Of a DNA stretch of 64,000 bases, positions 757 to 16,499 are shown one piece after another; positions within the stretch are counted from its first letter, which is position 1; each line of letters opens with the position of its first letter. Position numbers and translations under genes: made by a program. Origin of the DNA: Escherichia coli (GTDB lineage Bacteria; Pseudomonadota; Gammaproteobacteria; Enterobacterales; Enterobacteriaceae). Under the pieces are notes generated by a model. The model saw nothing but the letters and a program-made list of their open reading frames with translations. It made no database searches and was not told where the DNA came from. Location: NCBI RefSeq assembly GCF_024502345.1, contig NZ_JALDNN010000001.1, one strand, 5' to 3'.

Positions 757-773
757 CGCAGCAGGAGGTTAAG

Positions 774-1286
774 ATGCAATTAGATGAACAACGCCTGCGC
801 TTTCGTGACGCGATGGCCAGCCTGTCGGCAGCGGTAAATATTATCACCACCGAGGGCGACGCCGGACAATGCGGGATTACGGCAACGGCCGTCTGCTCGG
901 TCACGGATACACCACCGTCGCTGATGGTGTGCATTAACGCCAACAGTGCGATGAACCCGGTTTTTCAGGGCAACGGCAAGTTGTGCGTCAACGTCCTCAA
1001 CCATGAGCAGGAGCTGATGGCACGCCACTTCGCGGGCATGACAGGCATGGCGATGGAAGAGCGTTTTAGCCTCTCATGCTGGCAAAAAGGTCCGCTGGCG
1101 CAGCCGGCGCTGAAAGGTTCGCTTGCCAGTCTTGAAGGTGAGATCCGCGATGTGCAGGCAATTGGCACACATCTGGTGTATCTGGTGGAGATTAAAAACA
1201 TCATCCTCAGTGCAGAAGGTCACGGACTTATTTACTTTAAACGCCGTTTCCATCCGGTGATGCTGGAAATGGAAGCTGCGATTTAA
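774..1286 (+). CDS. hpaC: 4-hydroxyphenylacetate 3-monooxygenase reductase component (flavin:NADH reductase)
   Basis: 170-aa ORF starting MQLDEQRLRFRDAMASLSAAVNIITTEGDAGQCGITATAVCSVTDTPPSLMVCINAN, a flavin reductase-like sequence of the length I recall for HpaC; AGGAGG-like RBS (gcaggaggtt) a few nt upstream of the ATG. Confidence 0.8.
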   Translation: MQLDEQRLRFRDAMASLSAAVNIITTEGDAGQCGITATAVCSVTDTPPSLMVCINANSAMNPVFQGNGKLCVNVLNHEQELMARHFAGMTGMAMEERFSLSCWQKGPLAQPALKGSLASLEGEIRDVQAIGTHLVYLVEIKNIILSAEGHGLIYFKRRFHPVMLEMEAAI

Positions 1287-1293
1287 GCTCCAG

Positions 1294-1328
1294 CCCCTTC
1301 ACGTATTCGTCGAAGGGGCATTTTTATT
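1294..1328 (+). terminator. Rho-independent terminator candidate downstream of hpaC
   Basis: GC-rich inverted repeat ccccttcacgtattcgtcgaagggg followed by a T-run (cattttta). Confidence 0.5.
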
Positions 1329-1371
1329 GTGATCTCAATCACATATCCACCCGATGAATAATTCTTGCCCA

Positions 1372-1420
1372 ACCGCTCACCGCCATTCCTGACCGCTTAC
1401 ATCCCTAAAATAACCACTCA
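1372..1420 (+). promoter_or_regulatory. Putative BtsR (YehT) response-regulator boxes in the btsT promoter
   Basis: Three direct repeats ACCGCTCA / ACCGCTTA / ACCACTCA spaced 12-13 nt apart upstream of btsT; matches the ACC(G/A)CT(C/T)A repeat reported for the yjiY promoter (from memory). Confidence 0.4.
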
Positions 1421-1678
1421 GTTATTTACCTTACTTTACGCGCGCGTATCTCTGGCAACATCACTGCAGGATAGCGGTCAATTTACCTCCTCAAACGCAA
1501 CGCAAACCTAGAACGGCTTCGGCCTATGATTAACAAATTACTCTATGGATTTTGGTTTGCAGGAAGGCAGCAAGTAAGTGAATCCCCGGGAGCTTACAAC
1601 AGTAAGTGACAGGGGTGAACGAACGCAGCTGCCGCACCTGTAAGCCAAAAGACGACGAGTAAAATGCCAGGTTTTACT

Positions 1679-3829
1679 ATGGATACGAAAAAACTATTCA
1701 AGCACATACCCTGGGTGATTCTCGGAATCATCGGTGCATTCTGCCTCGCGGTAGTTGCATTACGTCGGGGGGAGCACGTCAGCGCCCTGTGGATCGTGGT
1801 CGCCTCTGTGTCGGTGTATCTGGTGGCGTATCGCTACTACAGTCTGTACATCGCCCAGAAGGTGATGAAACTCGACCCCACGCGCGCGACGCCTGCGGTT
1901 ATTAACAACGACGGTCTGAACTACGTTCCGACCAACCGTTACGTGTTGTTTGGTCACCACTTCGCCGCTATCGCCGGTGCTGGTCCGCTGGTTGGTCCGG
2001 TTCTCGCCGCGCAGATGGGCTACCTGCCTGGCACGCTGTGGCTGCTGGCGGGGGTAGTGCTGGCCGGTGCGGTACAGGACTTTATGGTGCTGTTTATCTC
2101 CTCTCGCCGTAACGGCGCATCTCTCGGTGAGATGATCAAAGAAGAGATGGGACCAGTACCGGGGACTATCGCGCTGTTTGGCTGTTTCTTAATCATGATC
2201 ATCATCCTCGCCGTTCTGGCGCTGATTGTGGTTAAAGCCCTGGCCGAAAGTCCGTGGGGTGTCTTCACCGTTTGCTCAACCGTACCAATTGCGCTGTTTA
2301 TGGGTATCTATATGCGCTTTATTCGTCCGGGGCGTGTAGGTGAAGTCTCTGTCATTGGTATCGTGCTGCTGGTTGCCTCTATCTACTTCGGTGGCGTGAT
2401 TGCTCACGATCCGTACTGGGGTCCGGCACTGACCTTTAAAGACACCACCATTACCTTCGCGCTGATTGGCTATGCGTTTGTTTCCGCGCTGCTGCCGGTG
2501 TGGCTGATCCTCGCACCACGCGACTATCTGGCAACCTTCCTGAAAATCGGCGTTATCGTCGGCCTGGCGCTGGGTATCGTGGTGCTGAACCCGGAACTGA
2601 AAATGCCTGCGATGACCCAGTACATTGACGGTACTGGCCCGCTGTGGAAAGGCGCTCTGTTCCCGTTCCTGTTCATCACCATCGCCTGTGGTGCGGTATC
2701 TGGCTTCCACGCACTGATCTCTTCCGGTACGACGCCGAAACTGCTGGCTAATGAAACCGACGCGCGTTTCATCGGTTATGGCGCAATGCTGATGGAGTCC
2801 TTCGTGGCGATTATGGCGCTGGTTGCTGCGTCCATCATCGAACCAGGTCTTTACTTCGCGATGAACACCCCGCCTGCTGGCCTTGGCATCACCATGCCTA
2901 ACCTGCATGAAATGGGTGGCGAGAACGCGCCGATCATCATGGCGCAGCTGAAAGACGTTACCGCACACGCGGCAGCGACCGTCAGCTCCTGGGGCTTCGT
3001 GATTTCGCCAGAACAGATCCTGCAAACCGCGAAAGACATTGGTGAGCCTTCTGTCCTGAACCGTGCAGGTGGTGCGCCGACGCTGGCGGTAGGTATCGCT
3101 CACGTGTTCCACAAAGTGCTGCCGATGGCTGACATGGGCTTCTGGTATCACTTCGGTATTCTGTTCGAAGCACTGTTCATCCTGACCGCGCTGGATGCGG
3201 GTACCCGTTCTGGCCGCTTTATGTTGCAAGACCTGCTGGGTAACTTCATCCCGTTCCTGAAAAAAACCGACTCTCTGGTTGCCGGTATCATCGGTACTGC
3301 GGGCTGTGTGGGTCTGTGGGGCTACCTGCTGTATCAGGGCGTGGTCGATCCGCTGGGCGGCGTTAAGAGCCTGTGGCCGCTGTTCGGTATCTCCAACCAG
3401 ATGCTGGCAGCCGTGGCGCTGGTACTGGGCACCGTTGTGCTGATTAAGATGAAGCGCACCCAATACATCTGGGTTACTGTTGTTCCGGCTGTATGGCTGC
3501 TTATCTGCACCACCTGGGCGCTGGGCCTGAAACTATTCAGCACCAACCCGCAGATGGAAGGCTTCTTCTACATGGCAAGCCAGTACAAAGAGAAGATTGC
3601 TAACGGTACTGACCTGACGGCGCAGCAGATTGCCAACATGAACCACATCGTTGTGAACAACTACACCAACGCAGGCCTGAGTATTCTGTTCCTGATTGTG
3701 GTGTACAGCATCATCTTCTACGGTTTCAAAACCTGGCTTGCGGTGCGTAACAGCGACAAACGTACTGACAAAGAAACTCCGTACGTTCCAATCCCGGAAG
3801 GCGGCGTGAAGATCTCTTCGCACCACTAA
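1679..3829 (+). CDS. btsT: CstA-family pyruvate/H+ symporter (BtsT/YjiY)
   Basis: Track ORF 1664..3829; likely start at MDTKKLFKHIPWV (716 aa). Large polytopic membrane protein of the carbon-starvation CstA family; synteny with yjiX-yjiA. Confidence 0.9.
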   Translation: MDTKKLFKHIPWVILGIIGAFCLAVVALRRGEHVSALWIVVASVSVYLVAYRYYSLYIAQKVMKLDPTRATPAVINNDGLNYVPTNRYVLFGHHFAAIAGAGPLVGPVLAAQMGYLPGTLWLLAGVVLAGAVQDFMVLFISSRRNGASLGEMIKEEMGPVPGTIALFGCFLIMIIILAVLALIVVKALAESPWGVFTVCSTVPIALFMGIYMRFIRPGRVGEVSVIGIVLLVASIYFGGVIAHDPYWGPALTFKDTTITFALIGYAFVSALLPVWLILAPRDYLATFLKIGVIVGLALGIVVLNPELKMPAMTQYIDGTGPLWKGALFPFLFITIACGAVSGFHALISSGTTPKLLANETDARFIGYGAMLMESFVAIMALVAASIIEPGLYFAMNTPPAGLGITMPNLHEMGGENAPIIMAQLKDVTAHAAATVSSWGFVISPEQILQTAKDIGEPSVLNRAGGAPTLAVGIAHVFHKVLPMADMGFWYHFGILFEALFILTALDAGTRSGRFMLQDLLGNFIPFLKKTDSLVAGIIGTAGCVGLWGYLLYQGVVDPLGGVKSLWPLFGISNQMLAAVALVLGTVVLIKMKRTQYIWVTVVPAVWLLICTTWALGLKLFSTNPQMEGFFYMASQYKEKIANGTDLTAQQIANMNHIVVNNYTNAGLSILFLIVVYSIIFYGFKTWLAVRNSDKRTDKETPYVPIPEGGVKISSHH

Positions 3830-3915
<86 letters not shown>

Positions 3916-3959: not shown

Positions 3960-4163
3960 ATGTTTGGTAACTTAGGACAGGCAAAAAAATATCTCGGCCA
4001 GGCGGCGAAGATGTTGATTGGCATTCCAGACTACGACAACTACGTCGAGCATATGAAGACCAACCATCCCGACAAGCCGTACATGAGCTATGAAGAATTC
4101 TTCCGCGAACGCCAGAACGCGCGCTACGGCGGCGATGGTAAAGGCGGTATGCGCTGTTGTTAA
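3960..4163 (+). CDS. yjiX: Small conserved protein YjiX (DUF466-like)
   Basis: 67-aa [70 protein letters not shown]; conserved partner position after the cstA-like gene. Confidence 0.8.
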
Positions 4164-4173
4164 TGGAGAGAGC

Positions 4174-5130
4174 ATGAACCCGATTGCAGTTACCCTACTC
4201 ACCGGTTTTTTAGGCGCGGGCAAAACTACCCTGCTGCGCCATATTCTTAACGAACAACACGGCTACAAGATTGCCGTGATTGAAAACGAATTCGGCGAAG
4301 TCTCCGTTGATGATCAATTGATTGGTGATCGCGCCACGCAGATCAAAACGCTGACCAACGGCTGCATCTGCTGTTCGCGCTCCAACGAGCTGGAAGACGC
4401 ACTACTCGACCTGCTGGATAATCTCGATAAGGGCAATATTCAGTTCGATCGTCTGGTCATTGAATGCACCGGCATGGCCGATCCTGGCCCGATTATTCAG
4501 ACCTTTTTCTCCCATGAGATTTTATGCCAGCGCTACCTGCTGGACGGCGTGATTGCGCTGGTGGATGCGGTACATGCCGATGAGCAGATGAACCAGTTCA
4601 CCATCGCCCAGTCACAGGTTGGCTACGCCGACCGTATTCTGCTGACTAAAACCGACGTCGCAGGCGAAGCAGAAAAACTGCGTGAACGCCTGGCGCGCAT
4701 CAACGCCCGTGCACCGGTCTACACCGTTACCCACGGCGACATCGACCTGGGCCTGCTGTTCAACACCAACGGTTTTATGCTGGAAGAAAACGTCGTCAGC
4801 ACCAAACCGCGTTTCCACTTTATCGCGGATAAACAAAACGATATTTCGTCGATTGTGGTGGAACTGGATTACCCGGTAGATATCAGCGAAGTTTCCCGGG
4901 TGATGGAAAACCTGCTGCTGGAATCGGCGGATAAACTGCTGCGTTACAAAGGGATGCTGTGGATTGACGGCGAACCTAACCGCCTGCTGTTCCAGGGCGT
5001 CCAGCGCCTCTACAGCGCCGACTGGGACAGGCCATGGGGCGATGAAAAACCGCATAGCACGATGGTGTTTATCGGGATTCAGTTGCCGGAGGATGAGATT
5101 CGGGCGGCGTTTGCGAGGTTGAGGAAGTAA
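4174..5130 (+). CDS. yjiA: CobW/HypB-family P-loop GTPase YjiA
   Basis: Track ORF 4090..5130; likely start at MNPIAVTLLTGFLGAGKTTLL (Walker A GxxGAGKT); CxCC motif (GCICCSRSNE) typical of COG0523 GTPases. Confidence 0.9.
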   Translation: MNPIAVTLLTGFLGAGKTTLLRHILNEQHGYKIAVIENEFGEVSVDDQLIGDRATQIKTLTNGCICCSRSNELEDALLDLLDNLDKGNIQFDRLVIECTGMADPGPIIQTFFSHEILCQRYLLDGVIALVDAVHADEQMNQFTIAQSQVGYADRILLTKTDVAGEAEKLRERLARINARAPVYTVTHGDIDLGLLFNTNGFMLEENVVSTKPRFHFIADKQNDISSIVVELDYPVDISEVSRVMENLLLESADKLLRYKGMLWIDGEPNRLLFQGVQRLYSADWDRPWGDEKPHSTMVFIGIQLPEDEIRAAFARLRK

Positions 5131-5163
5131 TTTTGGATGATGGCCGCCATGTGGTGGCCTGAA

Positions 5164-5466
5164 TTATTTTTTGTTCTGATCGCGCAGCATCGCCTCACGT
5201 AAAATTGCGTTCAGGCGAGTTTGATAGCCTTTACCAGGTCGCTTCAGCCATTCCATCACATCAGCATCAATACGCACCGAAGCCTGGGTTTTCAATGGCC
5301 GATAAAACTTACCGCGTTCTGCGTTAGACCATTGCTCATCGCTGGAAGGCGGGATATCACTGTAATCAATATCTTCGTCGGATTTATTCGCCAGTGCCTT
5401 CAGTTCGGCCTCATGCTGCACATCGAGTGTAGAGGGTGTCCCTCGTTTATGTTTAACCATGCTCAT
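5164..5466 (-). CDS. BrnA-like ribbon-helix-helix antitoxin-family protein (orphan; no BrnT gene seen)
   Basis: Track ORF 5164..5532; likely start at MSMVKHKRG with AGGAG RBS. C-terminal VRIDADVMEWLKRPGKGYQTRLNAILREAM matches my memory of the BrnA/COG3514 signature. Confidence 0.55.
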   Translation of the reverse strand: MSMVKHKRGTPSTLDVQHEAELKALANKSDEDIDYSDIPPSSDEQWSNAERGKFYRPLKTQASVRIDADVMEWLKRPGKGYQTRLNAILREAMLRDQNKK

Positions 5467-5604
5467 AGCGACTCCTCTCTTTACGATCTGCTTTTCGTGC
5501 ACTGATGATTCGAATGTTGGAAATAGCATCACGTTTTAGGAAAAGATGGGGAAGTTGATATGAAGGGGCTGGATGGCAACATTGGGACACCATCCAGCAC
5601 TTAT

Positions 5605-6339
5605 TCAAACCTGATAGCAATCCACCAAAAATGCCATCATTTCACTGGCATCTTTGCTGTGATAAAAGCGCACCATTTTGCTGTTGAACTCCAGCGCACG
5701 AGCCGCGGGTACACTAATGGGATTGTAACCGTGGCGCATTAACCAGCCGTTCATCATATGGCGACTGGTACGCTTGTTGCCATCAAAGAAAAACTGATAG
5801 TAGGCTCCAAAAAGGAACATCGCCAGCGCGCCTTCAAACGGGGAAAGCATTTTAATATGCGCGACACCCTCAGCAAAAATGCGATTCAGTTCAGGTGCAC
5901 CTGCTTCAGTGGCTGGTGGAAAATGAGTGCCCAGTTCACCGAGATGAACGCGGGCATTGTAATGTAACTCCTCACCTTCGCCGCGAAAAACGCCCCACTC
6001 CAGCGCCTCATTACGCGCAATAATGCCGTTAAGTAACGTGAACGTTTTCTTATCAAGGTCGAAACGCCCGGATTGCACAAGTTCAATCAGTTTTTTTGCG
6101 CTATCTGCCAGGTTCAACACCTGCTCTGTGTCACTGACCTTATGCCCGCCAATGGTGACACCATCGAGCAGCGTTTTAACTTCAACAAAGGTATAGGGGT
6201 TATTTTCCAGTTGCGCGGCATCCCAGACAAACCCAGCCATATGCGTTTTGAAGGTAAATAAGGCTGCGCGCGTACCGACAATTTGCATCGCCGGGATGGC
6301 ATTTGCATTCCAGCTCAGGTCCAGTAGTTTGGTTGTCAT
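5605..6339 (-). CDS. Fic/Doc (Fido)-fold-like protein with a non-canonical active-site motif (QFFFDGNKRTSR)
   Basis: 244-aa ORF with AAGGA RBS 8 nt upstream. ...AYYQFFFDGNKRTSRHMMNGWL aligns position-for-position with the Fic HPFx(D/E)GNGRxxR and Doc HxFx(D/N)(A/G)NKR motifs, but Gln occupies the catalytic His position. Family assignment by eye only. Confidence 0.5.
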   Translation of the reverse strand: MTTKLLDLSWNANAIPAMQIVGTRAALFTFKTHMAGFVWDAAQLENNPYTFVEVKTLLDGVTIGGHKVSDTEQVLNLADSAKKLIELVQSGRFDLDKKTFTLLNGIIARNEALEWGVFRGEGEELHYNARVHLGELGTHFPPATEAGAPELNRIFAEGVAHIKMLSPFEGALAMFLFGAYYQFFFDGNKRTSRHMMNGWLMRHGYNPISVPAARALEFNSKMVRFYHSKDASEMMAFLVDCYQV

Positions 6340-6382
6340 TAGAGGATCCTTGATTGCATGGTAAAGAGGATATTATTCCATA

Positions 6383-6568
6383 TTAAACCATCGCGTTATC
6401 CATCTGCTTTTCAAATGCCTGACGAATTAATCCCATCACATAAGGAAGCTCAGAAAGATCGCTGAAACCTACTTCAACATCGCCATTGCCCCAACGGCTT
6501 ATATCTGAGACGTCACGAGCAATACCTTTCGGATCGATCAATTCATGGAATGGCATGTTTAGCGTCAA
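6383..6568 (-). CDS. Small hypothetical protein (57-61 aa) between the GmrSD-like and Fic-like genes
   Basis: ORF whose TTG start overlaps the upstream gene stop by 4 nt (alternative ATG 12 nt downstream, MPFHELIDPKG...); no strong RBS; same strand as flanking genes. Coding status uncertain. Confidence 0.35.
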   Translation of the reverse strand: MTLNMPFHELIDPKGIARDVSDISRWGNGDVEVGFSDLSELPYVMGLIRQAFEKQMDNAMV

Positions 6569-8481
6569 ATGTAATCGTTTTTTTGCGGCACTGCATCAAC
6601 AAAATTCGTCTCCGCTTTGAAGGCAACATAGAGCTTCAATATTTCTCGCGTAACCCCAGCGTCCAGCGCCATAACGGCATCAGAAAGGCTGTCAAAAAGT
6701 ACGCGGATATGTGTACCTTCTTCAAGTTGCGGGAAATCAGCAAGGACATATCCCGTTCCTCGTTCAACGACGGTGCGATAACGAGCCAACACGTCTTCCG
6801 AAAGTTTGGGGATCGCCCAGACGTCTATTGCCAGCTCGGCCAGACGTTCCGCTCTCTTTTGTATCGCTGCACGATCCCATATTTCACATTGCCCTAACCC
6901 CGTGTTCAGGCGTAATGGACTTTCCTTAAAGCCACCTTTTATATCTCGTTTCTTCGCAAATGGACGGTCGCTGTAGCTTGAGTTATAGCCAGTTAACGTT
7001 AAATTACCCAACGTATGGAGCCACTTTTTATGGATTCGCTTCCATTCCGGACCAAGGTCATCGCGCCACTTCGCCGATAAATTAGGGTTCTGCGGCATGA
7101 TATGTTCAATCGTATATTCGTCTACGCAGACCCGTTCTTTACGACCGTGGTTTTCAAATCTGCGTAGCCAATAGCTGCGATTACGGAAGTTGTAGAGGTC
7201 GCGAGTTTTCAGTTCACGTTGAAATTCATCATCATCCGGGAAACGACGGTAGGAAGGCAGTTCCAGCAAATGCGCCGCAATGCTCTCCAGATAACGCTCT
7301 TTATCCAGCACTTTGTAAAACGTGGCGAAGGTTTTGGTAAATGAGTTGGTGGGAATGGCACAGACTGCGCGCCGGAAGATATACGACTCAATTAAACGCG
7401 TGGCACTTAAAAAATCCGCGGCAGAAAGGATCCCCTGTTTATAGTCGTGATAAAGCACCAACAGGAACGGCCATGCAGCATCAACTTTCAGCTGGCGTAG
7501 ATCCTGAAACGCCATCTTTAAGGTTTTATCCTTTTCGCTATCCAGCGCCATCGCACAAAAATAGTCAGCAAACGTACGAATATCCGCAACCAGCGCCTCC
7601 ATCCCGCTATCCATCACTCCTGGTTTTCGCGCATAGCGTTTAAAGGCTTCATAGACATCACCAATTCGCGGAATCTCACCTGTTTTTACCGTCAGGTAAT
7701 TACGCATAAAACTGTCGAAATAGTCAGTGTATCCCTTCTGACCAAATGCCAGCTCCATGGGCCGCCAGTAATCGTCGTACAGTTGGCTTTGATGTTCTGG
7801 CTCCAGCCCCATCAGAACATAGTTGCGTACCAGATCCGCCTGACTCAGCGCTTTTCCTGTTGAGTTCATGCTTTCAAAGATTAGTTGCGGATTATCCTGA
7901 CCGCGATTCAAGGCGACATCCACAATAAGCAGTTTGGAAAGTCCCTGACATAACGCGGTGAAATTGCCGTGGAGTTTGCCTATTTGCTCATGGAAAAACT
8001 CAAAATTCTCTTTCACGCGTAGAGAGCAATTTTCTGCCAGCGGTTTTTGTCTAATCAATGCCAGCAGGCTTTCTCTGTCCGTTTGCGTAAGCAGTAACTT
8101 AAAACCACGCTCGCCCGATTCATACGGATTGAGCAGATAATAGTTTCGTAATTTCATGGCGGAGAAACCATCCATCACCTCGTCATCACCAAGATGTCTG
8201 GACAACGCTTCCAGCAATAACATCGCCGTTGTTAGGCGTTGCTGACCGTCAATCACCAGTAAGGGAGAGATCCCCGAAACCTGATATAGGCCCTGTTCGA
8301 TATACACCACCGAGCCGATAAAATGCGCCGGGATATCATCACGCTGCCCGGCACGTATTACATCGTCCCAGAGCTGGCGGCACTGTTCCTCTGACCATGA
8401 ATAAGTACGCTGATAAATGGGAATAACGAATTGCTGAGAGCGTTTAAGAAAATCGAGTAATCGGGCTTCGGTGGCTTTCAT
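6565..8481 (-). CDS. GmrSD-family Type IV (modification-dependent) restriction endonuclease, single polypeptide (DUF262 + DUF1524)
   Basis: 638 aa; N-terminal FVIPIYQRTYSW and DGQQRLT motifs (DUF262/ParB-like NTPase); C-terminal EYTIEHIMPQ...HTLGNLTL...N His-Me finger signature (DUF1524); AGGAG RBS 7 nt upstream of the ATG. Confidence 0.8.
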   Translation of the reverse strand: MKATEARLLDFLKRSQQFVIPIYQRTYSWSEEQCRQLWDDVIRAGQRDDIPAHFIGSVVYIEQGLYQVSGISPLLVIDGQQRLTTAMLLLEALSRHLGDDEVMDGFSAMKLRNYYLLNPYESGERGFKLLLTQTDRESLLALIRQKPLAENCSLRVKENFEFFHEQIGKLHGNFTALCQGLSKLLIVDVALNRGQDNPQLIFESMNSTGKALSQADLVRNYVLMGLEPEHQSQLYDDYWRPMELAFGQKGYTDYFDSFMRNYLTVKTGEIPRIGDVYEAFKRYARKPGVMDSGMEALVADIRTFADYFCAMALDSEKDKTLKMAFQDLRQLKVDAAWPFLLVLYHDYKQGILSAADFLSATRLIESYIFRRAVCAIPTNSFTKTFATFYKVLDKERYLESIAAHLLELPSYRRFPDDDEFQRELKTRDLYNFRNRSYWLRRFENHGRKERVCVDEYTIEHIMPQNPNLSAKWRDDLGPEWKRIHKKWLHTLGNLTLTGYNSSYSDRPFAKKRDIKGGFKESPLRLNTGLGQCEIWDRAAIQKRAERLAELAIDVWAIPKLSEDVLARYRTVVERGTGYVLADFPQLEEGTHIRVLFDSLSDAVMALDAGVTREILKLYVAFKAETNFVDAVPQKNDYI

Positions 8482-8667
8482 GAATGACTCCTGTCAAATT
8501 GCACTGGCAAACGGCGTCATTATGCTGCGAATAAAAAATAAAAGTTAGCGTCTTTGTTTCTACAAAAATACCATTCCAGGATAAATCAAAATATATTAAG
8601 AAACACCTCAAAACGCATTCATTAGAGCAATTAATACTTCCAATTCATATTTATAACACATTGAAAA

Positions 8668-8688
8668 TGATCATGTTTTTGATCATCA
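8668..8688. promoter_or_regulatory. GATC-containing repeat TGATCATGTTTTTGATCATCA in the divergent gmrSD-like / hsdM intergenic region
   Basis: Two TGATCA palindromes (each holding a Dam GATC site) 12 bp apart in the AT-rich divergent promoter region. Function not established. Confidence 0.25.
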
Positions 8689-8756
8689 CAACGATAGTTT
8701 GATATAACAAAGCATTCACTTCACATTGAATATCTCCCTCTTTTTCAGGGCAAGGA

Positions 8757-11111
8757 ATGCTTTTTATGTCATCAACTAATTTCAGTCAGATCGCAGCCTT
8801 CCTGTGGTCTGTCGCCGACCTGTTACGCGGCGATTTTAAACAATCCCAATATGGGCGAATTATTCTCCCTTTCACTCTTCTTCGTCGTCTGGAATGCGTA
8901 CTCGAAACAACGAAAGACGCGGTCATTGCCGAGGCGCAAAAAGTAAAAGCCATGAAACTGCCGGAGGAAGCCCAGGAGAAAATGATCCTGCGGGCGACTA
9001 ATGGCCTCACGTTCTTTAATGCCTCAGCAATGGATCTCAGCAAAATGGGGCAAAATGGCATACAGGACAACCTGGAAAACTACATCCAGTCGTTCTCTTC
9101 GGATGCCCGCGAAATTTTCGAACACTTCAAGTTCAGCGAGTTTGTCGGACAGCTGGCGGATGCGAACTTACTGTTCAAAGTGGTGCAAATATTCGCTAAA
9201 GCAGATTTATACCCGGAGCACGTCACCAACCACGATATGGGGCTGGTATTTGAGGAGCTGATCCGACGTTTTGCCGAGAGTTCTAACGAAACCGCGGGGG
9301 AGCACTTTACCCCGCGTGATATCGTCAATCTGACCACCTCGCTGGTGTTTTTCGATGATGATGACGCGCTCAATAAAGACGGCATCATCCGCACCATTTA
9401 CGATCCAACGGCAGGAACCGGCGGCTTTCTCTCCTCCGGCATGGAGTTCGTCCACAAACAAAACCCCAATGCCGTGATGCGCGCGTTTGGTCAGGAGTTA
9501 AACCCGGAATCCTACGCCATCTGTAAAGCCGACATGCTGATTAAGGGCCAGGACGTCAGCCTTATCAAACTCGGCAACACCCTGTCCAACGATCAGCTCC
9601 CCGCAGAAAAATTCGATTACATGCTTTCTAATCCACCTTTCGGCGTGGACTGGAAAAAGATAGAAACCGACATCATCAACGAGCACAAACTCAAAGGTGC
9701 CGATGGTCGATTTGGCCCCGGCCTGCCCCGCGTCTCCGACGGTTCGTTGCTGTTTCTGCTTCACCTGATCAGCAAAATGCGCGATGCCAAAAGCGGTGGC
9801 GGGCGGATCGGCATCATTCTTAATGGTTCGCCGTTATTCACCGGCGGTGCAGGAAGCGGTGAAAGCGAGATCCGCCGCTACATTCTGGAAGCGGATTTGC
9901 TGGAAGGCATTATCGCCCTGCCCACCGACATGTTTTACAACACCGGTATCGCTACCTATGTGTGGATTTTGTCGAATAAAAAAGCGCCAGAACGCAAAGG
10001 CAAAGTCCAGCTTATTGACGGCAGCAACCTGTGCGGCAAGATGCGTAAATCGCTGGGGTCAAAACGCAATATTCTCGGAGACGAGGATATTGGTTTAATC
10101 ACCCGCACGTTTGGCGATTTCGAACCCGTTGCCACCACCACGCTTGCGGCGTTAGGCCTGGAGAAAGCACCTGAACAAAAATCCAGCCGGGGACGCCAGC
10201 CCGCAACAACCAAAACCGAGGCGGCAAAAACCTTTGCCAGCAAAGTCTTTCACAGCACCGAGTTTGGCTATCGTCGCATCACCGTTGAGCGCCCGTTACG
10301 CCTGTCGGCTCAGATCACCGATGACGCCATTGCCACATTACGCTTTGCGCCGAAGCCGTTTAACGCGCCGATGGCACAACTGTATGACGCCTTTGCTTTC
10401 CAGTGGCAGGACGGTAATTACGGCGACTTAACAGCGCTAGAAAGTGAAGCCCGCGCCATTCTTAAAGCCGATTTTAGCGAGCTGAAAGAGAAGCAAATTA
10501 AAGATCTGCTCGACAGCAAATTATGGCTGGCCCAGCGCGGATTAATGGAAAAAGCGCGGCGTATTCAGGCGGCGATGGGTATGCAGGCGGGCGGCAAAGA
10601 CACCGTTAGCAATAACTTTAATCTGTTCCAGTTGACGCTGAAAGAGGCGTTCAAAACCGCAGGCGTGAAGCTGGATGCGAAAGAGAACAAGCAGTTTATC
10701 GATGCCATCACCCGCAAAAACCCGGATGCCGAGCCGGTAATCAGCAAGGTACTGAAAGAGGCGGCCCAACCGCTGTATGGCGCGTGTGAGTACAACGGAA
10801 AGGTTGTGGAGTTTGAACCGGATGGCGACCTGCGCGATAACGAGAATGTACCGTTAAATCCGTCTGTATCTACCAGCGAGTTGATCGAGGGTTACTTCAA
10901 AGCAGAAGTGTTGCCGCACGTTGCGGATGCGTGGATTAACGCCGATAAGCGCGATGCGAAAGATGGGGATATCGGGATTGTGGGGTATGAAATTCCGTTT
11001 AATCGTCATTTTTATGTTTATCAGCCGCCAAGGCCGCTGGAGGAGATTGATGCGGATCTGGATGCGGTAAGCGCTGAGATTATGAAACTGTTGCAGGAGG
11101 TACATTCCTGA
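8757..11111 (+). CDS. hsdM: Type I restriction-modification system DNA methyltransferase subunit HsdM (long form, about 780 aa)
   Basis: NPPFG catalytic motif ([12 protein letters not shown]), AdoMet motif region ([10 protein letters not shown]), HsdM-like N-terminus ([31 protein letters not shown]). Alternative start at 8766 (MSSTNF) has better RBS spacing. About 270 aa C-terminal extension beyond a typical HsdM. Confidence 0.85.
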
Positions 11112-12385
11112 TGGCAGGGTTAAATAAATATCAGGCGTATCCGGAGTATAGGGATTCTGGGGTGGAGTGGTTGGGGGAGATTCCTGCTCATTGGGAAACG
11201 TTACAGCATAAATACGTCGCATATTATACTAAGGGCAAAAATCCTTCTTTTTTGCTCGATACCCCAACAAAGAACACCCTACCTTATCTTTCTATGGATT
11301 GTTTAAGAAATAACTCCATAGATAAATATGCTATAGTATCTAATGATATTCGTATTGCATTAGAGGGACAACCACTTATTATTTGGGATGGTTCTAATGC
11401 TGGGGAATTTGTCAAAGGCCGAAAAGGTATTTTATCCTCAACGATGGCCTCTGCAACGCTTAATTATCCTTTGCACATGCAATATTACTGGTATTTATGC
11501 ACTGCAATTGAATCTGAAATGCGTAAACATGCAAATGGTATGGGTATCCCTCATGTAAATGGAGAAGAATTAAAGAACATTCATCTAAGTATCCCTTCAA
11601 TAACCGAACAAAAAAGCATCGCTGGTTTTCTTGAATTTGAAACAACGAAAATTTCGAACCTTATAGAAAAACAACAACAACTAATTGAATTACTAAAAGA
11701 AAAACGTCAGGTCGTGATTAGCCATGCGGTCACAAAAGGGCTAAATCCTGACGTGCCGATGAAAGATTCTGGGGTTAAGTGGTTGGGGGAAGTTCCAAAA
11801 CACTGGCACATATGCAAGTTAAAATGGTTTGCTAATTTGAAAAGTGGTGATTTTATAACCAGCAATTCAATAGAACCAGAAGGAAACTATCCTGTATATG
11901 GTGGAAATGGATTAAGAGGATATTATTCTTATTTTACACACAATGGTGAATATGTTCTTATTGGTAGACAAGGTGCTCTTTGCGGAAATATAAATTACGC
12001 AATTGGAAAGTTTTGGGCTTCAGAACATGCTGTTGTTGTCACCCCAAACGAAAGAGCTGTTACAATATGGTTAGGAGAATTATTAAGAATAATGAACTTA
12101 AACCAATATTCAGTTTCTGCTGCACAACCGGGGCTTGCGGTTGAAAGAATTACTGATTTATATATTCCAATCCCACCATATCAAGAGCAAATAAATATCG
12201 GAACTTATATATCTAAATATATTTCTCTAGATAAAAAATTGATTGAGCATAGTACAGATAATATTGAACTCCTCAAAGAACGCCGCACCGCCCTTATCTC
12301 CGCCGCCGTCACCGGCAAAATTGATCTACGCAACTGGACCGCGCCCATCCCCGAAGCGGAAACACCCACGGAGGCCAGCGCATGA
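11111..12385 (+). CDS. hsdS: Type I restriction-modification specificity subunit HsdS (two target-recognition domains)
   Basis: Start overlaps hsdM stop (TGATG). Two repeated conserved segments (DSGVEWLGEIPAHWE / DSGVKWLGEVPKHW) each followed by a variable, AT-rich TRD; conserved central and C-terminal coiled regions (LIEKQQQLIELLKEKRQ / LIEHSTDNIELLKERRTALISAAVTGKIDL). Confidence 0.85.
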   Translation: MAGLNKYQAYPEYRDSGVEWLGEIPAHWETLQHKYVAYYTKGKNPSFLLDTPTKNTLPYLSMDCLRNNSIDKYAIVSNDIRIALEGQPLIIWDGSNAGEFVKGRKGILSSTMASATLNYPLHMQYYWYLCTAIESEMRKHANGMGIPHVNGEELKNIHLSIPSITEQKSIAGFLEFETTKISNLIEKQQQLIELLKEKRQVVISHAVTKGLNPDVPMKDSGVKWLGEVPKHWHICKLKWFANLKSGDFITSNSIEPEGNYPVYGGNGLRGYYSYFTHNGEYVLIGRQGALCGNINYAIGKFWASEHAVVVTPNERAVTIWLGELLRIMNLNQYSVSAAQPGLAVERITDLYIPIPPYQEQINIGTYISKYISLDKKLIEHSTDNIELLKERRTALISAAVTGKIDLRNWTAPIPEAETPTEASA

Positions 12386-15300
12386 GCCACGACATTACAA
12401 AAGAGGTTAACCTGCAAAACGACATCATCGCGCAGATGGTGGAAAAAGGCTGGATTGTCGGCAAAGGTGACGGCTACGACCGGGAACGTGCGCTATACGC
12501 ACAGGATACCTTAAACTTCGTGCAGACCACTCAAACGCAGGAGTGGGAGAAATTCGCCCGCGTTTACCCTAACGACCCAGAGCGCCATTTCCTCGACGCG
12601 CTGGTCGCGCAGCTTAAAAAAGCCGACAGCAACGCCACCGATATCCAGTCGCGCACCTGGGGTACGCTCGGCGTACTTCGCCACGGTCTGAAAATCCGCA
12701 ATGCCCGTTTTTCGCTGTGCCAGTTTAAACCGGAACACAACCTCAACCCGGAAACGCTGGCGCGCTATCAGCAAAATATCTGCCGTATCGTGCCGGAACT
12801 GGTCTACAGCCCTTATGCCTCAAATAGCGTCTTTGCAGAAACGGGCGTGAAAGCCAAAAAATGGCGCATCGACCTTGTGCTGTTTATCAACGGCCTGCCA
12901 ATTGCCACGCTGGAGCTGAAATCCGAATTTAAACAGGCGGTGCAGAACGCCATTGCGCAGTACAAAAAGACCCGCCTGCCGAAAGATCCCGCTACCAATA
13001 AACCTGAACCGCTGCTGGCCTTTAAGCGCGGGGCGCTGGTGCATTTTGCCGTCAGCCAGTATGACGTCTTTATGACCACCAAACTCGCAGGTGACAGCAC
13101 CTTCTTCCTGCCGTTTAACAAAGGCACCAAAGAAGGCGGTGCAGGCAATGAGATCCCCGAAGATACTCGCCGCTACGCCACCGATTATCTGTGGAATGAA
13201 GTGCTGCTGCCGGACAACTTATTAAAAATCCTCGCCAGTTTTGTCCATTTGCAGATTGAAGAAAAAGAGGAGTGGAACGGGCTGAAAGCGAAGAAAGAGA
13301 GCCTGATTTTCCCGCGCTATCACCAGTGGGATGTGGTCAACAAACTGCTGGAGGCTGCGACGGTCGAAGACACCGGCCATAAATACCTGATTCAGCACAG
13401 CGCAGGTTCCGGAAAGTCGAACTCCATTGCCTGGACCGCCCACCAGCTCTCTCGTCTGTACGACGCAAACGGGGAAAAACAGTTCCACTCCGTTATCGTG
13501 GTGACAGACCGCACGGTGCTGGACGACCAGCTTCAGGACACCATCTGGCAGTTCGAACATGCCGACGGCGTGGTCGGGCGCATCAATAACAGAGAGGGCG
13601 ACGGCTCTAAATCGGAAAAGCTCGCCAACGCGCTGGAAAACTCGCAACCGATTATTATTGTCACCATCCAGACGTTCCCGTTCGTATTGAAAGCTATCGA
13701 AAACAGTGTCAGCCTGAAGCAGCGTAAATACGCGGTAATCGCCGATGAAGCGCACTCCTCGCAGAGCGGTTCTACCGCCCGTCAGCTCAAAGAAGTGCTG
13801 ATGAGCGAAGAGATGGATGATGACGTGGTACTGTCGTCAGAAGATATTCTGGATGCGACCATCGCCGCACGGAAAGGTAGCAGTAACCTGAACTACTATG
13901 CCTTTACCGCCACGCCCAAATCCAAAACCCTGGAACTTTTTGGTCGCCGTCCACGTCCCGATGAACCGGCGTCAAAAACCAATAAACCTGAGGCCTTCCA
14001 CGTCTACTCCATGCGCCAGGCAATCGAAGAAGGCTTTATCCTCGACGTGCTGAAAAACTACACCAACTACAAAGTGGCGTATCAGTTGCTGCAAAAGCTG
14101 GAAGATGAAGACCGCGAAGTCGATAGCAAACGGGCGAAGGTAAAACTCAATCAGTGGGTGACACTGCACGACCACAATATCTCGCAGAAGGTGAAGGTGA
14201 TTGTGGAGCACTTCCGCAAACATGTGATGCATCTGCTTGGCGGCCAGGCTAAAGCGATGGTGGTCACCAGTTCACGCAAAGCCGCCGTGCGCTATAAGCT
14301 GGCATTTGATAAATACATTAGCGAGAACAATTACCAGAAAATCAGCGCGATGGTGGCGTTTTCCGGGGAAGTTGAATTCCGGGAAGGCGACCCTAACAGC
14401 CTGGCATTGTTAAACCAGAAATTTACTGAAATAAACATGAACCCCGGCCTGAAAGGACGGGATATGCGCAAAGCCTTCGACAGCGACGATTACCAAGTCA
14501 TGCTGGTCGCCAATAAATTCCAGACCGGTTTTGACCAGCCGAAGCTGTGCGCGATGTACGTGGATAAAGCCCTCGGCGGCGTCGAGTGTGTGCAGACGCT
14601 CTCCCGCCTGAACCGCACCTATCCGGGCAAAGCGGAATCTGGCACTTTTGTCCTCGATTTTTATAATGATCCGGACGAGATCCTCGGCGCATTCCAGCCC
14701 TATTTCCAGACGGCGGAACTGACCGATGTCAGCGATCCGCAGCAGGTATTCGATCTGTTTGAAAAACTGCGCGCCACGCAGATTTTTCAGTGGCATGAAG
14801 TCGAGCAGTTCTGCGAGGCATACTTCATCAAAAATAAATCGAATGCGGCGATCAGTAATATTTGCAAACCGGCGGTCGAACGCTGGAAAAAGCGTTATCT
14901 GATGGCGATAGACGCCTATTTGACCGCCAAAGAGATGTTCGAGCGCACCAAAAAAACGGGCGATACAGTATTAATCACCAATGCGGAAAACAGTTTTAAA
15001 GCCTGTAAGCAGGAGAAAGATCGTCTGGAAATATTCAAAAAAGATCTCGGCAGCTTTGTTCGTTTTTATGAATTTATGTCGCAGATCGTTGAATACGATG
15101 ACAAGGATCTGGAAAAGCTAAGCCTGTTTGCTCGTCATCTGCGTCCGCTGCTGCATGAGCAACGTCTGGAAGATGATGAAATTGATCTCAGTAATGTGGA
15201 GATGAGTCACTATCGTTTATCGAAAATCCATGAGCAAGATTTACGCTTACAGGAAGAAACGCCTGACTATACGCTGGATGCAAGTAATAATATTGGTACG

Positions 15301-15645
15301 GCAAAAGCGAAAGATAAAAAAGAGGAGTTTTTATCTCAGGTGCTTTCTCGGATGAATGAATTATTCATTAGTGACCATTTGACCGACAAAGATATGATCA
15401 GCAATGCTTTTTCGGTGTATAACAAAATAACTGAAAATGAAAATGTTATGACACAAATTAAAAACAATCCCCCAGAACAAGCGATTCTTGGTGATTTCCT
15501 CCAGGCAGTTGATAATGCTGTAATGGACAGTAATGACGCTCGGCAAGAATTCATGTTGCAATATTTATCCGATCCAGCTCGGGCAAAGGGCTTTGCTTAT
15601 CTGATGTTTGATATGCTAACGGGGAAAATTGCTTTGCCAACATAA
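12382..15645 (+). CDS. hsdR: Type I restriction enzyme endonuclease/translocase subunit HsdR
   Basis: 4-nt start/stop overlap with hsdS (ATGA). N-terminal PD-(D/E)xK motif (RIDLVLFINGLPIATLELKS), Walker A (HSAGSGKSNS), DEAH box (VIADEAHSSQ). 1087 aa. Confidence 0.85.
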   Translation: MSHDITKEVNLQNDIIAQMVEKGWIVGKGDGYDRERALYAQDTLNFVQTTQTQEWEKFARVYPNDPERHFLDALVAQLKKADSNATDIQSRTWGTLGVLRHGLKIRNARFSLCQFKPEHNLNPETLARYQQNICRIVPELVYSPYASNSVFAETGVKAKKWRIDLVLFINGLPIATLELKSEFKQAVQNAIAQYKKTRLPKDPATNKPEPLLAFKRGALVHFAVSQYDVFMTTKLAGDSTFFLPFNKGTKEGGAGNEIPEDTRRYATDYLWNEVLLPDNLLKILASFVHLQIEEKEEWNGLKAKKESLIFPRYHQWDVVNKLLEAATVEDTGHKYLIQHSAGSGKSNSIAWTAHQLSRLYDANGEKQFHSVIVVTDRTVLDDQLQDTIWQFEHADGVVGRINNREGDGSKSEKLANALENSQPIIIVTIQTFPFVLKAIENSVSLKQRKYAVIADEAHSSQSGSTARQLKEVLMSEEMDDDVVLSSEDILDATIAARKGSSNLNYYAFTATPKSKTLELFGRRPRPDEPASKTNKPEAFHVYSMRQAIEEGFILDVLKNYTNYKVAYQLLQKLEDEDREVDSKRAKVKLNQWVTLHDHNISQKVKVIVEHFRKHVMHLLGGQAKAMVVTSSRKAAVRYKLAFDKYISENNYQKISAMVAFSGEVEFREGDPNSLALLNQKFTEINMNPGLKGRDMRKAFDSDDYQVMLVANKFQTGFDQPKLCAMYVDKALGGVECVQTLSRLNRTYPGKAESGTFVLDFYNDPDEILGAFQPYFQTAELTDVSDPQQVFDLFEKLRATQIFQWHEVEQFCEAYFIKNKSNAAISNICKPAVERWKKRYLMAIDAYLTAKEMFERTKKTGDTVLITNAENSFKACKQEKDRLEIFKKDLGSFVRFYEFMSQIVEYDDKDLEKLSLFARHLRPLLHEQRLEDDEIDLSNVEMSHYRLSKIHEQDLRLQEETPDYTLDASNNIGTAKAKDKKEEFLSQVLSRMNELFISDHLTDKDMISNAFSVYNKITENENVMTQIKNNPPEQAILGDFLQAVDNAVMDSNDARQEFMLQYLSDPARAKGFAYLMFDMLTGKIALPT

Positions 15646-15710
15646 AAATACGTTAATAGCCGGGGTCGCACTTTCTACCCCGGCCATATTATTTACAATA
15701 AGGAATAGCT

Positions 15711-16424: not shown

Positions 16425-16428
16425 TATC

Positions 16429-16463
16429 TATATGTACCCTGGTTTCTTCCAGGGTACATATAA
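16429..16463. terminator. Perfect hairpin between the membrane-protein gene and convergent yjiS (possible bidirectional terminator)
   Basis: tatatgtaccctgg-tttcttc-cagggtacatata inverted repeat; no clean U-tract on the plus strand. Confidence 0.35.
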
Positions 16464-16499
16464 AAAGTTAATATCCTGATTTATTCTCAACATCCTCTA

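Follow-up and report, generated by a model that had tools for sequence, protein, structure and literature searches.

A frameshifted three-domain GmrSD-family gene beside a type I restriction-modification operon in the Escherichia coli immigration control region

Introduction

In a 64,000-nucleotide stretch of Escherichia coli DNA (contig NZ_JALDNN010000001.1; hereafter the window), a 638-codon open reading frame with an ATG start and its own stop codon (positions 6565-8481, minus strand) ends in a TGA (6565-6567) that overlaps the first possible start, a TTG (6566-6568), of a 61-amino acid open reading frame. An earlier note had read this arrangement as a complete single-polypeptide enzyme of the GmrSD/BrxU type, standing in for Mrr/McrBC, acting on glucosyl-hydroxymethylcytosine or otherwise modified DNA, and co-expressed with the small open reading frame and the unassigned genes that follow it. 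The overlap raises the question of whether these are two genes or one, and with it whether the 638-amino acid chain is an intact enzyme. GmrSD prototypes and BrxU are NTP-stimulated modification-dependent nucleases (PMC4437046, PMC8565348). [quoted passage not shown] 2015, PMC4437046, Fig. 8), and "GmrSD" makes up 12% of ICRs (EcoSal Plus 2025, PMC12707154).

Results

The open reading frame holds four motifs of the GmrSD superfamily, as the earlier note had observed: IPIYQRTYSW at residues 20-29 (8395-8424), DGQQRLT at residues 78-84 (8230-8250), EHIMPQ at residues 459-464 (7090-7107) and GNLTL at residues 492-496 (6994-7008), all on the minus strand, which the note had left unspecified. Profile searches bore out both catalytic domains in a single chain. 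GmrSD_N (PF03235, DUF262, a ParB/Srx-like NTPase domain) covers residues 9-222 (7816..8457, minus strand) with an E-value of 4.1e-34, and GmrSD_C (PF07510, DUF1524, a His-Me finger nuclease domain) covers residues 414-549 (6835..7242, minus strand) with an E-value of 2.5e-27; in an AF2 model of the full-length protein (pLDDT 89.9), helices from about residue 228 to 444 lie between the two. The DUF262 motifs (Y23-Q24-R25, D78-G-Q-Q-R82 and F202-x-x-x-N206) and the DUF1524 residues E459, H460 and P463 (E459-H460-I-M-P463), N493 and N500 all fall in invariant or near-invariant alignment columns, and within residues 1-632 the window product has lost none of the 18 invariant or 79 near-invariant residues of the family. 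An NCBIfam search returned no family for the 638-amino acid protein, the 61-amino acid open reading frame or the two genes that follow them, which encode a Fic-like protein and BrnA.

The C-terminal end of the chain is a different matter. In relatives, the locus is a single coding sequence of 2100 bp, encoding 699 amino acids and annotated as a "GmrSD restriction endonuclease domain-containing protein", whereas the corresponding gene in the window (6383..8481, minus strand) is 2099 nt long. At 6578..6584 (minus strand) the alignment places a run of seven adenines (A7) where the nearest relatives have eight (A8), and this is the sole indel across 13.7 kb between the window and its nearest genome, CP104123. 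When one adenine is added to the window gene, a 699-amino acid open reading frame results that differs from WP_219411637.1 at two residues. Without it the frame shifts at codon 633, and the open reading frame consists of native residues 1-632 followed by NDYI and a stop codon. The 61-amino acid open reading frame (6383..6568, minus strand; native residues ~637-699) reads ...TLNMPFHEL...GNGDVEV...QAFEKQ, which is the C-terminus of the intact protein, and it matches the PADLOC PDC-S18 profile at its C-terminal end only (positions 250-301 of 302).

The sequence interrupted in this way is a third domain, DUF5655. In the intact protein it matches Pfam model positions 13-108 of 109 (E 6e-12); in the window only its first part remains in frame, at residues 593-632 (6586..6705, minus strand; model positions 13-55 of 109, E 0.07), and the rest lies out of frame in the small open reading frame. 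Mapped onto the AF2 model, the truncation comes directly after the strand at 626-632 and removes the strands at 637-641 and 669-673 and the helix at 676-695. With one adenine lost from the A8 run, the product has 638 amino acids, and its third domain is missing its final two strands and C-terminal helix. The 61-amino acid open reading frame is therefore the out-of-frame tail of the same gene (the C-terminal 67 residues) and no separate partner, and the stop and start codons overlap because a frameshift lies inside one gene. As the small open reading frame is this tail and the native coding sequence is 2100 bp, the 638-amino acid chain is a truncated product of an enzyme that natively has three domains, and not the complete enzyme that had been proposed.

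A complete two-domain GmrSD/BrxU-type enzyme of 638 amino acids, translationally coupled to a separate small gene and to the genes downstream, can call on the intact open reading frame with both of its catalytic domains, on the TTG start that overlaps the stop, and on a Fic-like gene of the same orientation that starts 43 nt past the native gene end, across a gap in which a scan found no terminator-like site. Set against this, the small open reading frame is the C-terminus of the relatives' 699-amino acid protein shifted by one base, the Pfam DUF5655 domain is divided between the two open reading frames, and the top 120 homologs, mostly of 696-703 amino acids (range 676-731), have three Pfam domains without exception. 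In addition, the ATG of the remnant is not preceded by a Shine-Dalgarno-like sequence, and the remnant aligns with the PDC-S18 profile at its end alone. The two-gene arrangement is refuted at the sequence level, and we regard it as extremely improbable. What stands of the earlier reading at this point is the TGA/TTG overlap itself; co-expression as a separate gene does not.

The domain anatomy, the frameshift, the conservation and the genomic context are shown directly. To the reading as a whole, in which 6383-8481 on the minus strand is one gene for a three-domain GmrSD-superfamily defence nuclease of ~699 amino acids, frameshifted here by an A8 to A7 change and acting as proposed in the Discussion, we give a probability of about 75%. 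The gene is of a known and already annotated kind, present as a frameshifted allele. Its native product comprises an N-terminal DUF262 ParB/Srx-like NTPase with the DGQQR motif, a DUF1524 His-Me finger nuclease (E459-H460...N493...N500) that follows a long helical linker, and a C-terminal DUF5655 domain with a predicted YjbR/YdhG "double-wing"-like alpha/beta fold.

Homopolymer indels are a classic type of sequencing and assembly error, and A7 was found in none of the 114 complete E. coli genomes that carry the gene, 112 of which have no homopolymer at this site (AAAAAAGT). Both observations would fit a genome that in reality has an intact 699-amino acid gene. However, at least 95 contigs from NCBI, ENA and Logan (163 index blocks) encode the identical 638-amino acid protein; they come from independent isolate and metagenome assemblies and show two upstream and structural contexts. 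In six independent contigs that were retrieved, the 2099 nt of the gene match the window without a difference, with A7 in each. A search for the window's exact haplotype with A8, run as a test of phase variation, found none on record, and as noted above the missing base is the only indel in 13.7 kb relative to the nearest genome. An error is very improbable on this evidence; the A7 allele is real, inherited and clonal. The window's backbone is ~98.4% identical to its best match among 5,426 complete E. coli genomes.

A real A7 run could still be bypassed, through -1 ribosomal slippage, transcriptional slippage or switching between A7 and A8, so that the frameshift would act as an expression switch and some full-length enzyme would be made. 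The slippery-heptamer pattern under established frameshift rules is X_XXY_YYZ. The codons CAA AAA AAC at the A7 run form A_AAA_AAC, a canonical heptamer of this kind in the correct frame, and a -1 shift would restore the native frame (...PQKN-RLHLTLNMPF...) with a single K633N change. Against such a switch, no stimulatory RNA structure is present downstream of the heptamer (z = +0.54), the 112 E. coli alleles without a homopolymer need no shift, and the same haplotype with A8 has not been recorded. The A7 contigs are moreover all clonal, which points to one recent mutation and not to repeated switching. We consider bypass distinctly unlikely.

The gene lies within the yjiA-yjiS/yjiN ICR, between yjiA and a type I restriction-modification (R-M) operon, and it adjoins yjiA at the site that mrr occupies in K-12-type strains, in agreement with the proposed Mrr-replacing position. 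The operon hsdMSR (8757..15645, plus strand; PADLOC, NCBIfam and annotation) consists of hsdM (8757-11111; PADLOC MTase_I, E 8.5e-280; NCBIfam hsdM), hsdS (11111-12385; PADLOC Specificity_I, E 5.8e-108) and hsdR (12382-15645; PADLOC REase_I, E 1.2e-35; NCBIfam hsdR), all on the plus strand. The GmrSD-like gene is not embedded in it; the two are divergent, and the intergenic region between the gene and hsdM is 275 bp long (8482..8756) and contains no strong sigma-70 consensus that we could find. Over 5100-8800 as a whole, a scan for promoters and terminators found promoter-like sites to be scarcer than in shuffled sequence, and it yielded nothing of use in the divergent intergenic region. Leaving aside the small open reading frame, the unassigned genes on the other side encode a Fic-family protein of 244 amino acids with a degenerate motif, QFFFDGNKRTSR (5605..6339, minus strand; Pfam Fic, E 0.0025; PGAP "Fic family protein"), and a member of the BrnA antitoxin family (5164..5466, minus strand), the latter named from the annotation of relatives and from a Pfam BrnA_antitoxin match on the same gene at another locus (L009). 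Outside this E. coli ICR configuration the Fic protein does not accompany the GmrSD-like gene, and brnT is absent from the window's genome despite the BrnA gene. A 237-amino acid open reading frame after hsdR was compared with the YgjP/SprT-like gene located downstream of hsdR in Kiritimatiella and showed no similarity to it.

Proximity to type I R-M genes extends well beyond E. coli. The three-domain clade spans E. coli, Chloroflexota, Kiritimatiellota and methanogenic archaea at 64-72% identity, and in Kiritimatiella, Oceanimonas and Litorilinea (L004, L005 and L007) the GmrSD-like protein is encoded on the same strand inside a type I operon. Type I genes were detected within 8 kb at 15 of 24 informative three-domain loci, including 10 of 11 at >=60% identity, and were not detected at the other nine; these counts are lower bounds, as the type I HMMs were built from four operons only. 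Three further neighbourhoods (P0153, P0151 and P0196) had contigs that were too short or an uninformative context. In published work, no neighbours of GmrSD homologs were more enriched than type I domains (PMC4619093). Between hosts the GmrSD-like protein is 68-72% identical, compared with only 22-41% for their HsdM and HsdR, and their HsdS subunits differ. Homologs at E<=1e-30 comprise 2,708 representatives. The third domain is not universal in the wider family: among the 150 best representatives, 25 are "core-only" and 24 have other C-termini.

Among E. coli, the three-domain subfamily occurs in ~17% of complete genomes, and the gene has been broken repeatedly, through the present frameshift, an IS4 insertion, splits and possibly a substitution in DGQQR, which suggests a cost or relaxed selection in these lineages. 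A literature search for DUF5655 together with GmrSD returned no papers, the only DUF5655 paper found being irrelevant, and no published biochemical or phage assay of the three-domain subfamily was found.

The closest E. coli comparison is the ICR copy of the UTI89-like strain NU14, which is 75% identical over 699 residues, has the same three domains and, like the window copy, adjoins type I R-M genes in the yjiA-yjiN island. It follows symE at the island's opposite end (the site of mcrBC in K-12), with mrr retained, while the window copy is next to yjiA in the mrr position, is accompanied by the Fic and BrnA genes and is frameshifted. APECO1_2080 is likewise 75% identical to the window protein, and only 24% identical to Eco94GmrSD (He et al., PMC4437046). 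One reading of the EcoSal review would make the window protein Eco94GmrSD itself; this was rejected, as Eco94GmrSD has 629 amino acids, is prophage-borne and carries a DHxxP motif (PMC4437046). EcoCT596GmrSD, Eco94GmrSD and BrxU (PDB 7P9K) also carry the two Pfam domains on one chain, in the order seen here, and have no DUF5655. BrxU was not recovered by phmmer at E<=1 nor by hmmsearch with a 90-sequence profile at E<=0.01, and matched by fold only.

Better matches lie elsewhere. The best PADLOC family is "Orf5" (E 6.6e-217), a label only, whose accession numbers fall among the Dnd, Pbe and Ssp models. HEC-06 (PDLC04155) gives an E-value of 2.6e-60, aligning residues 8-557 with positions 12-560 of 562, and is thus a sister family by profile score rather than the best assignment. 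Like the window protein, HEC-06 is a single protein that acts alone and has DGQQR and an EHxxP nuclease motif, with defence requiring the DGQQR and EH motifs (Payne et al. 2024, bioRxiv 10.1101/2024.01.29.577857); it differs in its length of ~562 amino acids, in having no DUF5655 and in being embedded in Hma systems and not in type I R-M. A profile search against the PDB gave DndI as the best match (9.4e-39, residues 6-555), and Foldseek ranked DndI (5e-16) ahead of SspE (1.8e-13) and BrxU (2.7e-5, TM ~0.3). DndI of S. enterica Cerro 87 (PDB 9JFL; PMC11662687) and SspE (PDB 6JIV/7DRS) are consequently the nearest solved structures by profile and fold, and neither is a classical type IV enzyme. 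Both combine a DUF262 NTPase bearing DGQQR with a DUF1524 HNH nickase, as the window protein does, and both differ from it in having no DUF5655, at an identity of ~15-18%. In sequence and modelled fold, DndI, SspE and PADLOC HEC-06 resemble the protein more than prototype GmrSD or BrxU do, and homology does not establish the GmrSD/BrxU-type activity on glucosyl-hydroxymethylcytosine or other modified DNA that the earlier note had proposed.

DndI and SspE function alongside dnd or ssp phosphorothioation genes and are licensed by phosphorothioate (PT) in host DNA, which they sense through a tyrosine in a hydrophobic pocket (Y25 in DndI, PMC11662687; Y30 in SspE). The window enzyme could by extension be a nickase of this type, with an NTPase regulated by the host's own DNA mark (PT or type I m6A) and directed at unmarked invader DNA. 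The profile and fold ranking favours this, as do the numbering of "Orf5", the embedding of the family between type I modification and restriction genes, and the alignment of Y23 with Y25 of DndI. The aligned tyrosine is, however, part of the generic DUF262 motif P-x-YQR-x-Y-x-W and is not diagnostic, and no dnd or ssp genes lie beside the gene in the window, where its neighbours are yjiA, brnA, the Fic-like gene and hsdMSR, or at L004, L005 and L007, the three distant loci that were annotated. The disparity in conservation between the protein and its host operons also argues against a tight fit to one R-M system, and TgvAB, a type I-embedded relative, targets hypermodified cytosine (PMC11411939). 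A nickase guided by the host mark is unlikely, though the least so of the alternatives weighed here.

Discussion

The preferred reading is of one three-domain gene, frameshifted in this lineage. By analogy with the characterised relatives HEC-06, DndI, SspE, BrxU and TgvAB, binding and hydrolysis of NTP by the DUF262 domain would gate nicking or cleavage of DNA by the DUF1524 domain. The placement of a DUF262/DUF1524 nuclease in or beside hsdMSR is shared with TgvAB from V. cholerae VPI-2 and RloF from C. jejuni (PMC11411939, PMC4619093), although TgvAB is made of two proteins, a DUF262-only TgvA and TgvB, and not of one chain with an extra C-terminal domain. The role suggested for type I-embedded GmrSD-like genes is to act on modified phage DNA and so to supplement type I restriction (PMC11411939, PMC4619093). 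As such a companion, the enzyme would most likely attack invading DNA that escapes classical restriction, hypermodified phage DNA being one example. The C-terminal domain would be a putative accessory module that binds DNA or a ligand, as its modelled fold suggests; the fold match is at 11-14% identity, and the same fold includes frataxin/CyaY, which do not bind DNA.

The type I operons of its hosts are much less conserved than the clade itself, and the role of the clade might therefore go beyond that of an independent type IV enzyme. The three-domain proteins could form a second effector in functional partnership with type I R-M, for instance by reading the host's m6A as "self", much as DndI and SspE, the nearest solved relatives, read PT, and by using the YjbR/YdhG-like C-terminal domain as the sensor, an idea to which we give only a slender chance. 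If it were true, the A7 allele would be a natural mutant in which the sensor is removed and the NTPase and nuclease are kept.

As for the truncated allele itself, it is probably impaired or inactive. Partial activity is a realistic prospect, if short of an even chance, because natural "core-only" homologs of ~560 amino acids exist. The half-domain that remains on the truncated protein could nevertheless misfold, unlike a clean "core-only" enzyme.

For annotation, the locus is best described as one frameshifted GmrSD-family gene and not as a 638-amino acid enzyme with a small partner open reading frame, and glucosyl-hydroxymethylcytosine should not be taken for granted as its substrate. The subfamily to which it belongs is widespread across many phyla, including archaea, unusually conserved and usually found with type I R-M, and the A7 allele offers a natural test of the role of its C-terminal domain.

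A truncated three-domain gene with intact catalytic motifs

The window carries a truncated three-domain gene of the GmrSD superfamily that keeps its catalytic motifs and is associated with a type I restriction-modification (R-M) system. The open reading frame at 6565-8481 was borne out on the minus strand (ATG 8481-8479, TGA 6567-6565, 638 codons), with all four motif strings quoted in the earlier note at aa 20-29, 78-84, 459-464 and 492-496. A formal HMM search for the two domains proposed there was positive in Pfam for both GmrSD_N (PF03235, formerly DUF262; aa 9-222, E 4.1e-34) and GmrSD_C (PF07510, formerly DUF1524; aa 414-549, E 2.5e-27). Thirty-four PADLOC families match the ORF, led by 'Orf5' (PDLC02693, E 6.6e-217) and HEC-06 (E 2.6e-60), with mREase_IV and SspE among the weaker matches, and superfamily membership is solid. 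Within aa 1-632 the ORF retains 18/18 invariant and 79/79 near-invariant residues. A third Pfam domain, DUF5655, is cut short by the stop codon itself, at position 55 of the 109 in its model.

The DNA at the truncation reads ...GTG CCG CAA AAA AAC GAT TAC ATT TGA and contains a run of seven adenines at 6578-6584 (allele A7). One extra A is present in this run (A8) in the two nearest complete genomes, CP104123 and CP159689 (99.8% identical), which encode a single 2100-bp CDS of 699 aa annotated as 'GmrSD restriction endonuclease domain-containing protein'. With one A inserted, the window sequence gives a 699-aa ORF that differs at 2 residues from the protein of those genomes and contains the whole DUF5655 (positions 13-108 of 109, E 6e-12). 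As the extra A restores both the reading frame and the domain, the 61-aa ORF at 6383-6568 is the out-of-frame tail of the same protein, which at the level of sequence refutes the proposal that it is a separate, co-expressed small gene. The overlap of stop and start that had suggested such a gene exists because of the one-base shift and a permissive TTG start. By itself the 61-aa ORF matches the PADLOC PDC-S18 profile over its final 50 positions and nowhere else, and inspection of the window sequence found no Shine-Dalgarno-like sequence upstream of the remnant's first ATG. In the AlphaFold2 model the frameshift falls after strand 626-632, and the C-terminal domain is left without two of its strands and its long terminal helix.

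The A7 allele is genuine and clonal

Across 13,742 bases aligned to the nearest relative there are 25 substitutions and one gap only, the missing A. A sequencing error in an intact gene could account for such a gap, but at least 95 contigs (163 index blocks) drawn from NCBI isolates, ENA metagenomes and Logan assemblies encode the exact 638-aa product, in two upstream contexts, with hsdM either intact or cut by an integrase-bearing element. Six fetched A7 contigs match the window without a single difference across the 2099 nt of the gene. Together these observations show that A7 is a real allele of recent, clonal origin and not an isolated error. With a 91-nt probe across the site, the gene was located in 114 complete E. 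coli genomes, of which 0/114 have A7, 2/114 have A8 and 112/114 have the non-homopolymeric in-frame AAAAAAGT. The A8 form of the window's exact haplotype is not on record; the remnant is undecayed, and the A8 allele is only four substitutions away.

A programmed or phase-variable read-through could in principle yield the full-length enzyme, as the codons CAA AAA AAC form an in-frame A_AAA_AAC slippery heptamer at which a -1 slip would return translation to the native frame with one K-to-N change. However, RNA structure downstream is absent (z = +0.54) and 112/114 E. coli alleles lack a homopolymer at the site, so programmed use of the heptamer has nothing in its support.

In two assemblies with the A7 allele (GCA_028654935.1 and GCA_053255715.1, 1-2716), the adjacent hsdM is reduced to 233 aa by an element with a phage-type integrase, which leaves this sub-lineage with damage to its type I system as well as to the GmrSD-like gene.

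The immigration control region and its surroundings

[quoted passage not shown] A further 837 complete E. coli genomes carry a copy about 73% identical in DNA and 75% in protein at the other island end, after symE, which is the mcrBC position in K-12. This copy is the 'diverged ICR GmrSD homolog' (APECO1_2080, UTI89_C5048) of He et al. 2015 (PMC4437046), and a 2025 EcoSal Plus review counts it as 'GmrSD, 12% of ICRs' (PMC12707154). The B2-lineage ICR copy of E. coli NU14 (NZ_CP019777.1; locus L100:9001-11094, minus strand) is an uninterrupted 697-codon ORF that PGAP splits into a 'DUF262 ... incomplete' pseudogene and a 387-aa protein. Relative to the common allele P0023 it carries P21T and D78E. 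Both positions are invariant in the family, D78 being the first residue of DGQQR, so that the NTPase of this copy may be impaired.

The ICR segment (3960-17700) is 99.8% identical to E. coli USMARC-49610, against about 98.4% for the backbone (1-3832 and 16500-41000), a difference that suggests exchange of the island between lineages. Among 5,426 complete E. coli genomes the best match to the backbone reaches only about 98.3-98.6% identity, and the source genome belongs to an Escherichia/Shigella lineage that this collection lacks.

Downstream of the GmrSD-like gene, a 244-aa Fic family protein (5605-6339, minus strand; Pfam E 0.0025) has the degenerate motif QFFFDGNKRTSR in place of HxFx(D/E)GNGRxxR, with the catalytic His and second Gly replaced, and no PADLOC or NCBIfam match. 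The intervening gap is 43 nt with no terminator-like site, and co-transcription is possible. The two genes lie side by side only in the window's E. coli ICR configuration, and the Fic-like gene is no conserved partner. A BrnA antitoxin gene (5164-5466, minus strand) stands without a BrnT toxin gene; strain OkiPb01695 has brnT-brnA at that place. Directly 3' of hsdR, the 237-aa ORF (15711-16424, plus strand) is conserved in relatives, where it is annotated 'hypothetical protein'; neither NCBIfam nor PADLOC gives a match, and the ORF is unrelated to the YgjP/SprT-like gene after Kiritimatiella hsdR.

Farther along, a low-GC block (~41-52 kb) contains a 267-aa ORF (44451-45254, plus strand) that covers an inner stretch of a type I-like N6-adenine methyltransferase and matches PADLOC MTase_I (PDLC03019) at profile positions 102-336 of 932 with E 6e-101. 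This fragment adjoins an AIDA/MisL-type autotransporter (45318-48506), followed by an IS5 transposase (48576-49544, plus strand; scores identical to those of the IS5-family ORF at 32333-33301, minus strand) and a P4-type integrase (50842-52092, minus strand); the whole has the look of a decayed island on the leuX/yjgR side. A 32-40% GC block holds a sce7726-family protein (41089-41991, minus strand; NCBIfam NF033832, E 4e-52) with a weak PADLOC 'cll' match. The fim cluster (fimA-H, fimB/E) and nanC/nanM, which the nearest relative has between yjiC and leuX, are missing from the window, and this may reflect IS5-mediated deletion or rearrangement.

Association with type I systems across phyla

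In distant phyla the gene (X) lies inside type I operons and shares their strand, and the stop and start codons of neighbouring genes often overlap: hsdM-hsdS-X-hsdR in Kiritimatiella, hsdM-hsdS-bro-hsdR-X in Oceanimonas and hsdM-X-...-hsdS-darTG-hsdR in Litorilinea. Other cargo inside these operons comprises Bro-N in Oceanimonas and DarT-Macro in Litorilinea. We searched 80 species-level loci with HMMs from four operons, so that all counts are lower bounds; type I genes lie within 8 kb at no fewer than 15 of the 24 informative loci (three domains, at least 4 kb on either side) and 10 of the 11 at ≥60% identity. The E. coli protein is 68-72% identical to those of the three distant operons, compared with 27-39% for HsdM and 22-41% for HsdR. 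Such a cassette, far more conserved than its host operon, fits a mobile module inserting into different type I systems. Type I domains are known as the most enriched neighbours of GmrSD homologs, as with RloF in C. jejuni (PMC4619093), and embedding has been described for TgvAB (PMC11411939) and in the 'embedding' survey of Payne et al. (bioRxiv 10.1101/2024.01.29.577857). We give a low probability to a mode of action in which this clade, so unusually well conserved and found within R-M operons, is coupled to the type I system.

Characterised relatives and the C-terminal domain

A sequence-profile comparison with solved structures puts DndI first (9JFL, E 9.4e-39 over residues 6-555) and SspE next, without a match to BrxU; fold comparison ranks DndI (5e-16, TM 0.51-0.57), SspE (1.8e-13) and BrxU (2.7e-5). 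Among characterised proteins, the closest are DndI, SspE and HEC-06, and not GmrSD or BrxU. HEC-06 has been validated as a defence protein that acts alone and requires its DGQQR and EH motifs (bioRxiv 10.1101/2024.01.29.577857). Hypermodified cytosine DNA is cut by GmrSD, BrxU and TgvAB (PMC4437046, PMC8565348, PMC11411939), but with these nearest relatives the cleavage of glucosyl-hydroxymethylcytosine DNA suggested in the earlier note is not established for the window protein. An alternative of low probability is a DndI/SspE-like mode with sensing of a self mark; both of these proteins are nickases under NTPase control, and they are licensed by phosphorothioate that the host places on its own DNA (PMC11662687). 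Identity with Eco94GmrSD was considered and rejected, as that protein, unlike the window's, has 629 aa, is prophage-borne and carries DHxxP.

All 120 best homologs have the three Pfam domains, with lengths mostly of 696-703 aa (range 676-731). Identity to the E. coli protein is 68-72% in Kiritimatiella, Litorilinea (Chloroflexota), Binatia and many Gammaproteobacteria, and a species-genome scan added Acidobacteria, Actinobacteria, Bacteroidota, Firmicutes, Cyanobacteria and archaea (Methanococcoides, 64%). An exhaustive search gave 2,708 representatives of 50%-identity clusters at E≤1e-30; among the best 150 of these, 95 have a DUF5655-like C-terminus, 25 consist of the core alone ('core-only', ~560 aa, with identity of up to 60%) and 24 bear another C-terminal extension. 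The C-terminal domain is therefore a modular appendage to a self-sufficient NTPase-nuclease core. The full-length AlphaFold2 model is confident (pLDDT 89.9, pTM 0.79). Modelled by itself (pLDDT 94.3), the C-terminal domain has a YjbR/YdhG 'double-wing'-like alpha/beta fold, from which an accessory role in binding DNA or a ligand can reasonably be inferred.

Proposed mechanism and significance

By analogy with its relatives, DUF262 would bind and hydrolyse NTP through DGQQR and so gate the His-Me nuclease (E459-H460, N493, N500), which would then nick or cut invading DNA; the C-terminal domain, judged from its fold, may contribute DNA or ligand binding. As a companion to type I R-M, the enzyme would most plausibly cover DNA that escapes classical restriction. 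With half a domain left dangling, we put the chance that the A7 product is impaired or inactive at roughly 60%; since natural core-only homologs exist, some remaining activity is a somewhat less probable but serious prospect.

The gene in the window is of a known kind, and its allele is broken. [quoted passage not shown] The present analysis contributes the frameshift, which explains what the 'small ORF' is; it also identifies a third domain and its fold, records how often the truncated allele occurs, and places DndI, SspE and HEC-06, not GmrSD or BrxU, as the nearest characterised relatives.
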